Shown here piece by piece: positions 49,200 through 53,939 of a DNA stretch of 64,000 bases. The translations under genes were made by a program, and so were the position numbers. The DNA is taken from NCBI GenBank assembly GCA_963727525.1, contig CAVSGO010000007.1, positions 1,376,001 through 1,440,000 of the forward strand, in the 5' to 3' direction. The number at the start of each line of letters is the position of its first letter. Position 1 is the first letter of the stretch. Below the pieces are notes generated by a model. The model did no database searches and was not told the origin of the DNA. It saw only the letters and a list, made by a program, of their open reading frames with translations. This stretch comes from an uncultured bacterium (lineage in GTDB: Bacteria; Krumholzibacteriota; Krumholzibacteriia; LZORAL124-64-63).

Positions 49200-51057
49200 T
49201 TACGCGTCGAGACGCGCGACGGTTTCCGTCAATCCCGGCAACGGCGGCGGCGCGCCGGGGATGGTCGGATCGATCGCTGCCGCCGCCCCCAGCAGCGCGC
49301 GCAGATGGCGCACGCCGGTCGGCATGGCGTCGCGATACTGGCGCTTGCCGCGCACGTGCGTGAGGAAGCCGAACGCCCCCAGCGCCTGCATCACGCGCTG
49401 CAGCCCCGCCGTCACGCACCACGCGCGCCAGGTGGCCGCGTCGGGCGCGGGGTATCCTCGTTGCTGCAATCGCCGGGGATGGCCGGCGGCGAGGTGTTCG
49501 CGCAGGTCGTCGGGCAGAGCGACGTAGCTGTCGCGCAGCAACGCCATCACATCGTACGCGAGCGGCCCCAGGCGCATACCCTGCACGTCGACCAGGCGAA
49601 TCGTGCCATCTTGCACAAGGATGTTCTGCGCCTGGTAGTCGCGGTGCACCAGCACTTGCGGCTGGGCCAGGGCGGCGCTGGCGAGGGCCTCGAACTCGGC
49701 GTCGAGATAGGCGACTGCAGACTCCCCCAGGCCGGCGTGGCCGATGAGGAAGCGCGCCCGGAAATAATCGGTCTCCCAGCGGAGATAGGAATGGTCGAAG
49801 ACACGGTCGCTGCAGCATGGGCAATCATTGCGCGCCGCCGTCCCGCGCGTCTGGAGATCGGCCAGGACGTCGAGCGCTCGCCCATAGACCTCGGCGCGGT
49901 CTTGCGGGCGCGAGCGCGCGATGGCCACCAGCGTGTCGTCGCCAAGATCCTCGCTCACGAGCACGCCCTGCGCCTCGTCGACGGCCAGCACCGCCGCGGC
50001 GCCCAGGTCGTGCGCGTGCAGGAAGCGCGCGACCGCCGCGCTGCGCCGGATCTCGTCGCTCCCTGGCTCGTCGCGCATGACCATGGCGCGGCGATCAAGG
50101 TCGACGATGCGCCAGAAACGGCGCGGCGAACCGTGGCCGGTGAGCGGCACCACGCGACTGTGCGGCGCGAAGCCCAGGGCGCGCACTGGTGCCGGCGCCA
50201 GCGCGAGGTTCTGGTCCTCGTCCACCTGCCAGTCCGGGCCGAGCACGGCGCGTTCGGCCTGTGCGTTCGCCGGCACGGCCGCGCCCGGTAGCACGACGCA
50301 AGCCCGCAGACGCGCACCCGCGGCGACCTGCGCGCTCTCTCCGCAACTGACGAAATCCGGTCCGAGCGCGGCGGCATGGGCGTCGAGATAGCGGGTGAGC
50401 GTGCCCAGATCCATCCAGGCGCCGACATGGACCAAGCCCCGGACACGCGCAGGATCGCGCTGCATGGCGCTCACGAGGGCCGCCACGAGATCCGATGGTC
50501 CCGCAGGCACGAGATCGAGGAAGGCACGCGCGAGTGCGGCCACGCCCGTGTAGGTGAGAGAGCGATCGTCGCCGCACGCCGGCACGTCGCACCGTCCGGC
50601 GATGCCGCGTATCGTGCCGTCCGCACCGAGGACGACGGTGTTTACCTGTGGCCAGTCCGTGAGCACGAGCGTCGCCAGCGCACCGCTTTGGCGATGGGTC
50701 GCCAGGAGCGCCGACACGTCGATGTCGCTGGCCACGTCGCCGTTGGAGAGCAGGATGGTGTCGGCAGCGGCGAGATGCACGCGCGCGCCCGCGAGGGCGC
50801 CGCCCGTGCCGAGGATCTGCGGCTCGCGGCTCACGACGAGGCGGGGGTCATCGCGCGCCGCCACGTGCTCCGCCACCTGGTCGGCGAGATGATGCGCGTT
50901 CACGACGCAGCGCGCGCAGCCCGCGGCGAGGAGCGCATCGACCGCGCGGTCGAGCAGGGTGCGGCCCAGCAACGGCAACAGCGGCTTGGGCAGGTGGGCC
51001 GTGAGTGGCCACAGGCGCGCGCCGTGACCGGCGGCGAGCACCAGACCGTGCACGCGC

Positions 51058-51065
<8 letters not shown>
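49200..51065 (-). CDS. Nucleotidyltransferase-phosphotransferase fusion (MurU-like + AmgK-like)
   Basis: N-terminal half: LAAGHGARLWPLT..PKPLL, NAHHL, LGTGG, NGDV, WMDLGT. C-terminal half: HGSPRRFWR, EDLGD, HRDYQAQN, LVDVQG, YDVMALL, ALGAF. Confidence 0.85.
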
Positions 51066-52239
<1,174 letters not shown>

Positions 52240-52258
52240 GGTGGGTCTCCTGCGGCGA

Positions 52259-52279
52259 GGCCGAGCGCCCGGCTCAGCC
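52259..52279 (-). promoter_or_regulatory. Candidate bacterial SECIS element
   Basis: GGCUGAGC-CGGGC-GCUCGGCC: 8-bp stem with one G-U pair, G at loop position 2, and 29 nt between the UGA and the loop. Confidence 0.6.
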
Positions 52280-52588
52280 GAAATAATCAATCTTGCAGCC
52301 TCAGCCGTCCCACATGCGTTCGTAGGCGGCGAGGCGCTCGCGGACGAAGTTGCGCCCGGCCGCGCCGTCGGCGAGCGGCCGGATCACGCGCTCGCCCGGT
52401 CGGGGGCACTCCACGGCCGCCCAGCTCGCGTCGTCGCGTACGATGAGCAACGGACCGGCGAGGCCGGTGTCATGCGTGGCCGCCACCGGGAACGACGCCG
52501 CCAGCGCCTGCCACTGCGCCTCGGCAAGACGCACGATCTCCCCACGCCCGAGGCGCCGGCGCACCGTGGCCAGCGTGGGCGCGCTCAT
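52274..52588 (-). CDS. Putative small selenoprotein (104 aa; Sec at the UGA 52301-52303, U-G-C motif)
   Basis: The ORF from ATG 52588 reads ...RERLAAYERMWDG-TGA-GGC TGC AAG ATT GAT TAT TTC GGC-TGA, with a stem-loop downstream of the first UGA. The CDS itself is well supported; readthrough is inferred. Confidence 0.75.
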
Positions 52589-53742
52589 GGCGCACCGCCC
52601 GCGGCGAGGGTCTCCACCGCCAGCGCCACGTTGTCCCACGAATACCGTGCCTTCTCGCGCGCCACCGCCGCGGCGAAGGCCGTGGCGTGCTGCTCGTCGA
52701 AGAAGCGCACCACCGCCTGCGCCAGGGCGCCGGCATCGCCTGGCGGCACGATGAATCCCGTCTCGCCGTCCTTGACCACTTCGGGCAATCCGCCCACGCG
52801 CGTGGTGACGACGGGCCGGTCGTAGTTATAGGCGATCTGTACGATACCGCTCTGCGTGGCCGATACGTAGGGCAGCACCACGAGGTCCGCGGCCTGGAAG
52901 TAGTCCTCGATCTGGTCGTCGGGCACGTAGCGGTCGACCAGGTCGATCACGTCGGCCGCCCCGCTGGCCGCGATCCTCTCGCGATACGGCAGGGCATCGC
53001 CGTAGATATCGCCCACGATGAGCACGCGCACGCCATCGCGCCCATAGCGCGCGCGCAGCAGCGGCGCGGCATCGATGAGATGGGGCACGCCCTTGTACGG
53101 CTTGATGAACCCGAAATACAGCACGATGTGTGCGTCGTGCGGCAACCCGAGAGCCGCGCGCGCCTCGGTGCGGCTCTTGCGCGGCCGCCCGGGCACGCCG
53201 AAGTCGTACACGGGGTGCGGCGCCGTGATCACCGCCCCGGGCGCCGTACGGGGTAACAGCGCCAGCAATTCCTGCCGCACCTGCTCGCTCTGTGCCACGA
53301 AGCCATGGCTGCGTCTCAGGGCTTCCCGCGTGAAGTACCGCCCGAGCGGATAGGACTCGTGCGGCACCACGTTGTGCAGGATCGTGACCACCCGCGCCCG
53401 CTTGCGCACGCGCTGCAGTACCCCGATGTAGCCTGGCGCGAAGAACGGGATCCAGTACTGCAGGAGCACCGCGTCGGGATGCCAGTCGATGATGTCCTGC
53501 GCCGTCTGCCACCAGCTCAGCGGCGACCACGGCACGAACCGCGGCTGATTGGGCCGCTGCAACCAATGCGCCGTCTGCCCGCGCTGGTCGGTCCCGGGAA
53601 AGAGGAACCGTGGATACTGCTTGCAGAAACTCGACCAGAACAGCTCGTGGCCGCGCCCCTCGAGCGTCCGGTACAGCATCGCTTGATGCGTGACGATCCC
53701 GCCCCGAAACGGCGGCGCGGGTCCCAGCATGGCCAGACGCAT
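52585..53742 (-). CDS. Glycosyltransferase family 4
   Basis: FGFIKPYKG, LPYVSATQSG, VVTTRVGGLPEVV. Confidence 0.93.
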   Translation of the reverse strand: MRLAMLGPAPPFRGGIVTHQAMLYRTLEGRGHELFWSSFCKQYPRFLFPGTDQRGQTAHWLQRPNQPRFVPWSPLSWWQTAQDIIDWHPDAVLLQYWIPFFAPGYIGVLQRVRKRARVVTILHNVVPHESYPLGRYFTREALRRSHGFVAQSEQVRQELLALLPRTAPGAVITAPHPVYDFGVPGRPRKSRTEARAALGLPHDAHIVLYFGFIKPYKGVPHLIDAAPLLRARYGRDGVRVLIVGDIYGDALPYRERIAASGAADVIDLVDRYVPDDQIEDYFQAADLVVLPYVSATQSGIVQIAYNYDRPVVTTRVGGLPEVVKDGETGFIVPPGDAGALAQAVVRFFDEQHATAFAAAVAREKARYSWDNVALAVETLAAGGAP

Positions 53743-53939
53743 GTCCACCTCCGCGCATCCTTCTGCGCCCCAGCAAGGTACCGCATCGCTCACGCCCCGC
53801 CAAGCTCGGGGGCCACCTCGACGATGTCGAGATGGGGAGGCGTCACGTCGGTTGCAGATTCGATAATGGTGCGATATGCTCCCGTTTCATTGGCGCGCCC
53901 TCGCATCGTCGAGGCGCAGCACCCGTGAAAGGACGATCC

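Follow-up and report, generated by a model that had tools for sequence, protein, structure and literature searches.

A small gene on the minus strand of the window, as we call the whole 64,000-nucleotide stretch of DNA analyzed here, is very probably a genuine selenocysteine (Sec)-decoding gene, and the sequence comparisons described below suggest that it is the founder or a member of a so far undescribed family of small, stand-alone proteins. Comparison with homologs strongly supports the assignment of its in-frame UGA, codon 96, as the position at which Sec and Cys alternate in a conserved C-terminal motif. The coordinates of the gene and of the features around it are collected in Table 1. 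The start codon, ATG at position 52588, shares bases with the TGA stop of the glycosyltransferase gene upstream (ATGA), and the minus-strand open reading frame proceeds to ...RLAAYERMWDG before it reaches a TGA at 52303-52301. The codons past this first TGA are GGC TGC AAG ATT GAT TAT TTC GGC, that is, G-C-K-I-D-Y-F-G, after which the second TGA is found. Termination at the first TGA gives 95 codons, while the read-through product has 104 residues. A first-pass annotation, made from the letters of the sequence, had described the apparent stop after YERMWDG with the frame running on as GCKIDYFG, as well as a UxC motif at the C-terminus of the read-through product. Both were confirmed, the motif being U96-G-C98. 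That annotation had also expected gene callers to cut the product short, and the public protein entry for this gene (P0002) does consist of 95 amino acids. Its interpretation of the gene as encoding a 104-amino acid selenoprotein is now strongly supported by the Cys homologs, by the conservation of the tail and by the Sec machinery of the genome. An Rfam search of the locus gave no relevant match, and the sequencing-run listing for the locus contained no RNA run and one DNA run (share 0.05).

Table 1. Features of the small gene and its surroundings, in positions of the window.
Feature	Position	Strand	Basis or remark
Small CDS, very probably of a selenoprotein (M1-G104, with U96 and C98)	52277..52588	-	104 codons; reading of the frame and homologs
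In-frame TGA, read as U96 (Sec)	52301..52303	-	Cys at the aligned site in homologs
True stop codon, TGA	52274..52276	-	Inside the 5' arm of the hairpin
SECIS-like hairpin, GGCUGAGC/CGGGC/GCUCGGCC, -13.5 kcal/mol	52259..52279	-	Folding; equivalents in 18 of 18 Sec-form loci
GT4-type glycosyltransferase	52585..53745	-	Directly upstream; in 15 of 23 related loci
NamZ-type exo-beta-N-acetylmuramidase	51058..52242	-	Downstream; in 10 of 23 related loci
MurU-like nucleotidyltransferase/AmgK-like kinase fusion (cell-wall sugar recycling)	49200..51065	-	

Sec and Cys forms among the relatives

The gene was present in 24 of a set of 61 related genomes, the window's own being one of the 24. When the DNA of these loci was read past the match, the UGA position was occupied by TGA in 18 and by Cys in six. 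Homologs that end at this position with TAA or TAG, which had been named beforehand as evidence against Sec, were found at none of the 24 related loci. Sixteen of the Sec-form loci read W-D-G-TGA and the other two have the diverged sequence ...YWLGYG-TGA-TPGCSCS. All Sec forms continue for 7-10 conserved residues past the UGA and then reach a real stop codon (TGA, TAG or TAA), the tails seen being UGCKIDYFG, UGGCKPDYYN, UCATKVDYFS, UGCTKIDYFS and UCASKVEYYR. Conservation past the UGA was a further point to be checked, and the residues G(G)CK(I/P/V)DY(F/Y) are indeed kept up to the real stop though the codons vary; changes in length are of whole codons. The motif can be written as W-D-G-[U/C]-x(0-2)-C-[K/R]-x-[D/N]-[Y/F], and across the loci 0-3 residues separate U from the second Cys. 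The diverged subfamily, represented by L027, L028 and four more genomes of the same genus (rows G007, G030, G172, G174, G175 and G176), ends in ...YWLGYG-U-TPGCSCS, where the Sec is shifted and followed by two later Cys residues, and it has its own hairpin 22-23 nt past the UGA.

A profile search across the phylum located the gene in 66 of 208 genomes. Exactly one in-frame TGA was present in 55 of the 66 and none in the other 11, so the Sec form is dominant across the window's phylum. Protein databases gave a complementary picture. A search of 5.8 billion proteins retrieved 47 relatives of 79-108 residues, 29 of which were aligned; 25 end exactly at ...YERMWDG and four read on with Cys at the UGA position, their tails being CGCRIDYDA, CGACRPDYFA, CGCKVEYYR and CGCKIDYHL. 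A profile search of 1.84 billion representatives returned 238 proteins at E ≤ 0.001. P0051, a protein of 2888 amino acids with repeats of about 100 residues, reached 1.2e-30 against the family profile by way of 22 weak stretches at profile positions 14-62, but it looks spurious as a relative and is probably a repeat artifact. The tails were then counted in 192 relatives of 400 residues or fewer, pooled from both protein-database searches: 90 carry Cys (WDGC...), 76 stop at WDG (a count of protein ends only, with the stop codons not seen), 22 have longer or other tails and four have another residue at the UGA position. Many of the 22 longer or other tails are also Cys forms, so that the Cys total is at least 90, with ...MWDGCGCK(I/V)DY.. 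as the typical end. The MWDGCGCKIDY C-termini that the first-pass annotation had mentioned do exist in database proteins, for example in P0048 and P0058. A scan of the genome collection with a pattern that required Cys detected 187 further Cys-form loci, most of them, to go by the record titles, in Gemmatimonadota and the remaining ones in Myxococcota, Eisenbacteria, Krumholzibacteriia, Acidobacteriota, Holophagae, Fibrobacteraceae, Rhodothermales, Ignavibacteriaceae, Planctomycetia, Methylomirabilota and Bdellovibrionales. The check for a Cys opposite the UGA was positive at every level at which it was made (6 of 24 related loci, 11 of 66 phylum genomes and at least 90 database proteins).

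A check for selA, selB, selC and selD found all four in the window's genome. The tRNA-Sec scored 70.4 bits (cut-off, 47) and has the anticodon tca according to ARAGORN; SelA scored 388.8 bits, SelB 302.2 bits (cut-off, 242) and SelD 365.2 bits. The SelD frame has an in-frame TGA of its own, read as ...KSAG-U-AAKL.... This selD gene (G000 contig C8:225522-226571, minus strand; L042:1387-2436) is thus itself Sec-encoding, and a hairpin with a GGA loop starts 20 nt past its UGA. SelA was found in 200 of the 208 phylum genomes and in all carriers of the small gene. With SelA this widespread, a correlation between the Sec form and SelA is uninformative.

The hairpin past the UGA

Bacterial SECIS elements were taken as hairpins whose apical loop lies about 16-37 nt past the UGA and has a G near its start, and the window hairpin has this geometry. 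It consists of 8 bp, including one G-U, its loop starts 29 nt past the UGA with a G at loop position 2, and it reaches from the last sense codon across the true stop into the untranslated 3' spacer. The geometry was therefore as described in the first-pass annotation. As lone evidence the hairpin did not hold up. Against dinucleotide shuffles the 54-nt stretch had z = 0.03, with 89 of 200 shuffles folding at least as well. In a comparison set of 762 TGA-terminated, high-GC3 open reading frames of the same genome, an equally strong hairpin at a like distance (loop 16-37 nt) followed 64 of the ordinary TGA stops, and 234 of the 762 had a hairpin of -6 kcal/mol or better. A positional test of the hairpin with mononucleotide shuffles gave 4 of 300. 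By itself, the window hairpin is not beyond chance and is weak evidence when taken singly. The weight of the case for Sec is carried by the cross-genome comparison and not by the single sequence.

Across the family, a hairpin of 5-14 bp with an energy of -6 kcal/mol or better, and with its loop 20-32 nt past the UGA, was present in 18 of 18 Sec-form loci, whereas the Cys forms are mostly without a SECIS-like hairpin. The mean hairpin energy was -9.5 kcal/mol in the 18 Sec forms and -3.5 kcal/mol in the six Cys forms. The Mann-Whitney test of this contrast gave p = 0.001 with kin counted as independent, a value that overstates the case because kin are not independent. Two stem types were distinguished. 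In type A, which includes the window, the true UGA stop lies in the 5' arm (..CUGAC(C)..) and the loops are CGGGA, CGGGC, GGA or GGG. In type B, (A)CUUCUCC-UAG.., the stop codon is UAG and sits at the top of the stem. Since the registers of the hairpins are shifted by 1-3 nt, the Sec forms were not pooled for one column-wise covariation test; pairing was instead counted in register-consistent subsets comprising 16 (type A) and 5 (type B) of 31 Sec-form sequences. In type A, 98.2% of the cells were paired, as opposed to 13-47% when the partner was slid, and two of seven pairs had changed on both sides; the observed values were reached by 2 of 500 shuffles for the covariation score and by 24 of 500 for the number of doubly changed pairs. 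In type B, 97.1% were paired versus 49-66% with the partner slid, two of seven pairs had again changed on both sides, and 42 of 500 shuffles reached the observed value for the pair count and likewise 42 of 500 for the covariation score. The covariation is modest, and it is drawn from related genomes. The window stem and that of L021 share the same register and are two G-C to C-G flips apart.

Three Cys forms, L022, L132 and L138 (tail CGACKPDYLK), belong to one genus of the window's family and retain the SECIS-like hairpin seen in Sec-form congeners, except that one stem position is mismatched (AAAUGAC where the congeners have AACUGAC). Judged from these sequences, this looks like a recent replacement of Sec by Cys with the hairpin in decay. 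In the spacer past the true stop of another locus (L014:1798-1859) there is a partial duplication, ACUGAUCCGGACC followed by ACUGACCGGGAGUCGG, which shifts the conserved hairpin downstream by about 12 nt compared with the relatives of this locus.

Following the standard bacterial mechanism, SelB with Sec-tRNA(Sec) would be recruited by the hairpin loop located 29 nt past UGA-96 when this codon is in the A site. Sec would be inserted there and eight more codons would be read. With just eight codons left after the Sec, the hairpin extends across the true stop into the 3' spacer. The second UGA would terminate translation because the ribosome has by then melted the stem and no SECIS element at the right distance is left.

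An ordinary stop at UGA-96 would imply a product of 95 amino acids and would ascribe the downstream likeness to a conserved element that is not translated, for example a terminator or a regulatory hairpin. The unexceptional window hairpin is compatible with this explanation, and so are the gene callers, which end at Gly95, and the codons of the window tail, which are AT-rich in a genome of about 70% GC. However, the Cys homologs translate the same tail unbroken, and the tail is kept at the amino acid level through codon changes and whole-codon in-frame indels. A TGA at one site has been kept in 55 genomes, and a promoter and terminator scan around the small gene detected no such site and no T-run after the gene. 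We regard an ordinary stop as extremely improbable. A reassigned genetic code is not the explanation either, because UGA is a normal stop elsewhere in the window's genome, where 762 long open reading frames end with it. The reading of UGA-96 as a Sec codon is the one followed below.

The predicted protein and its place among known families

AlphaFold2, run with an alignment of 28 sequences, produced a model with a pLDDT of 90.2 and a pTM of 0.82, and the tail (residues 94-104) had a pLDDT of about 77-82. The prediction is a compact α/β domain, built in the order helix, strand, helix, four-strand meander and long helix, after which comes the short tail with U96-G-C98. The predicted elements are a helix at 6-14, a strand at 19-22, a helix at 23-30, strands at 35-39, 47-51, 56-60 and 66-72, and a helix at 75-93. 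E60, R70, Y89, W93 and G95 are invariant in the family, and R85, R91, D94 and the Sec/Cys site are nearly so.

Pfam and NCBIfam scans of the 95-amino acid protein, the read-through protein (E ≤ 1) and four Cys homologs identified no family; an HtpX row obtained among the four Cys homologs was spurious. A sequence profile search of the PDB had a best E value of 7.8, which is noise, and Foldseek found no match of the model to the PDB below E = 0.1. The best VIA-align match was the WGR domain 2eoc (Z 5.1, rmsd 3.7, 77 residues aligned), within a Z range that the tool rates as common. Other WGR chains had Z values of 4.0-5.0, and there was no Pfam match to PF05406. No thioredoxin-like fold was among the listed Foldseek and VIA-align matches. 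The ESM Atlas contained unnamed clusters, with a best score of 0.78. No fused forms were found at E ≤ 1e-5, in a search that the tool rates as weak evidence, and the longer database matches had no informative extra domain. The few relatives that carry a name are called 'hypothetical protein'.

A 2026 review (PMC13188914) gives domain identifiers for 119 prokaryotic selenoprotein families in its Table 1, and the small protein matched none of the Pfam and NCBIfam models of these families; the scan covered all but the few families that have cd or PTHR identifiers alone. The passages on deep-Sep (PMC12013277) and BSepDB (PMC13326102) make no mention of the family, and the supplementary tables of these works could bear on its novelty. 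Literature searches by motif, by selenoproteins of these phyla and by C-terminal C-x-C selenoproteins returned no description of it. By the models scanned, then, the family is undescribed, being absent from Pfam, NCBIfam and the catalog of 119 families.

Several known proteins resemble it in part. UXX-star, KCU-star and Cys-Cys-COOH SaoC (Table 1 in PMC13188914) are bacterial selenoproteins that have their Sec close to the C-terminus; like the small protein, they are small or stand-alone, have the Sec a few residues from the stop and have Cys homologs. In all of them the proximity of the Sec to the stop means that the recoding hairpin must sit at or beyond the stop codon. Their NCBIfam models, however, do not match the small protein, whose domain is different and unnamed and whose motif is U-x(0-2)-C with K-x-D-Y after it, 8-10 residues before the stop. 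A Sec-Gly-Cys type of motif is shared with the UGC-motif selenoproteins (DUF1573, PF07610, and the TlpA family, cd02966) and with the UGSC protein NF041046. The small protein gave no Pfam or NCBIfam match to any of them, nor was a thioredoxin-like fold present among its listed fold matches.

The genes around the small gene in the window are suggestive at the level of the lineage. The GTG start of the NamZ gene, at 52242, is 31 nt past the true stop of the small gene and is preceded by GGAGA. The MurU/AmgK-like fusion, of 621 residues, comes directly after NamZ and overlaps its gene by 8 nt; these two genes look like a compact peptidoglycan-sugar recycling cassette that is conserved in related genomes. 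Outside the window's lineage, the GT4/NamZ context was found at 5 of 80 Cys-form loci. The neighbors in the Gemmatimonadota subset of these 80 loci included an Asp/Glu racemase directly upstream (11 loci), MsrA (13), an α/β hydrolase (16) and a creatininase (12), and at ten loci from other phyla the neighbors differed at each. At two distant Cys-form loci, Nitro_FeMo-Co (NifX/NifB-like) and DUF134 proteins are same-strand neighbors (L103:5553-5942 and L116:6407-6847). No conserved partner gene across phyla was found among the loci examined. As the neighbors differ between lineages, there is no family-wide partner, and the gene order gives a lineage-level hint only of a link between the small gene and the cell wall.

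Possible roles of the tail

The U/C pair, on a tail that follows a long helix, could cycle between a selenol/thiol form and an intramolecular selenenylsulfide. By analogy with other C-terminal C-x-C or C-U arms, the tail would then act as a small redox shuttle or reductant, the likeliest of the roles considered although its odds are somewhat below even. Erv2p has a Cys-Gly-Cys tail. The varied spacing between U and Cys, together with the terminal position, would fit a flexible arm and not one fixed redox geometry. The C-terminal arm of mammalian thioredoxin reductase, Gly-Cys-Sec-Gly, can form a selenenylsulfide and take part in electron transfer (PMC10957665). Analogy suggests that the small protein resembles it in having, on a flexible C-terminal tail, a Sec/Cys pair able to form a selenenylsulfide. 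The two differ in that thioredoxin reductase is a large flavoenzyme with an adjacent C-U and a eukaryotic SECIS, while the small protein has U-G-C and no flavin or NADPH domain.

Other explanations accept the conserved tail but give it a different purpose. If the protein were a ribosomal peptide precursor, its folded part would serve as a leader, and the short Sec/Cys core behind it (UGCKIDYFG) would be cleaved off and modified. The conserved motif is located at the extreme C-terminus after an invariant Gly, and Sec-containing precursors are known ('Selenobacteriocin', Table 1 in PMC13188914). Nevertheless, none of the lineages examined has a conserved maturase, protease or exporter close to the gene, and the N-terminal part is confidently predicted as a folded domain with invariant residues of its own, which leaves a peptide precursor with hardly any probability. 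Alternatively, the selenoprotein may be real and its tail a carrier of selenium, sulfur or a metal, in effect a portable version of the loop with which SelD binds selenium. The Cys-form tail G-C-G-C-K-I (as in P0048) is identical to a hexapeptide of the Gly-rich N-terminal loop of SelD (3u0o_A, ...HGAGCGCKISP...), the Sec/Cys-variable residue is the same first Cys, and the SelD of the window's genome has U there (SAGUAAKL). SelD was also above the cut-off in 8 of 10 diverse Cys-form carrier genomes versus 2 of 14 controls, although the 10 carriers checked were hand-picked from selenium-using phyla and two of them had no SelD above the cut-off. A six-residue match to the SelD loop can be due to chance, and the U-to-K spacing of that loop is lost in the commonest Sec forms (UGGCK, UCATK and UGCTK). 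The small protein differs further from SelD in that its motif is C-terminal, its length is about 100 residues and it lacks the PurM-like ATP-binding fold; it gave no match to the SelD model TIGR00476. A carrier of this kind is unlikely, though it is the main alternative to the redox role. A narrower proposal is that the tail is a free-standing SelD selenium-binding loop (G-[U/C]-G-C-K-I) acting as a dedicated selenium or persulfide carrier, which would hand activated chalcogen to SelD or other acceptors and which the window's lineage would have taken up into an operon for the recycling of cell-wall sugars (GT4, NamZ, MurU/AmgK). We consider this proposal quite improbable; if it is true, a carrier in such an operon would hint that some step of peptidoglycan turnover involves redox chemistry or depends on selenium.

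As a very probable Sec-decoding gene, the small gene adds a family to the prokaryotic selenoproteome, one that counts 238 representative clusters in public data. Its current annotation is systematically wrong, since 76 of the 192 database relatives end at the same Gly and the window entry stops at 95 amino acids. The family also provides a natural series for the study of a bacterial SECIS that straddles the true stop, with two stem types and one genus that has both Sec and fresh Cys forms. Being a folded protein of about 100 residues, it offers a small system in which to ask what favors Sec over Cys in a U-x-C center at the C-terminus.
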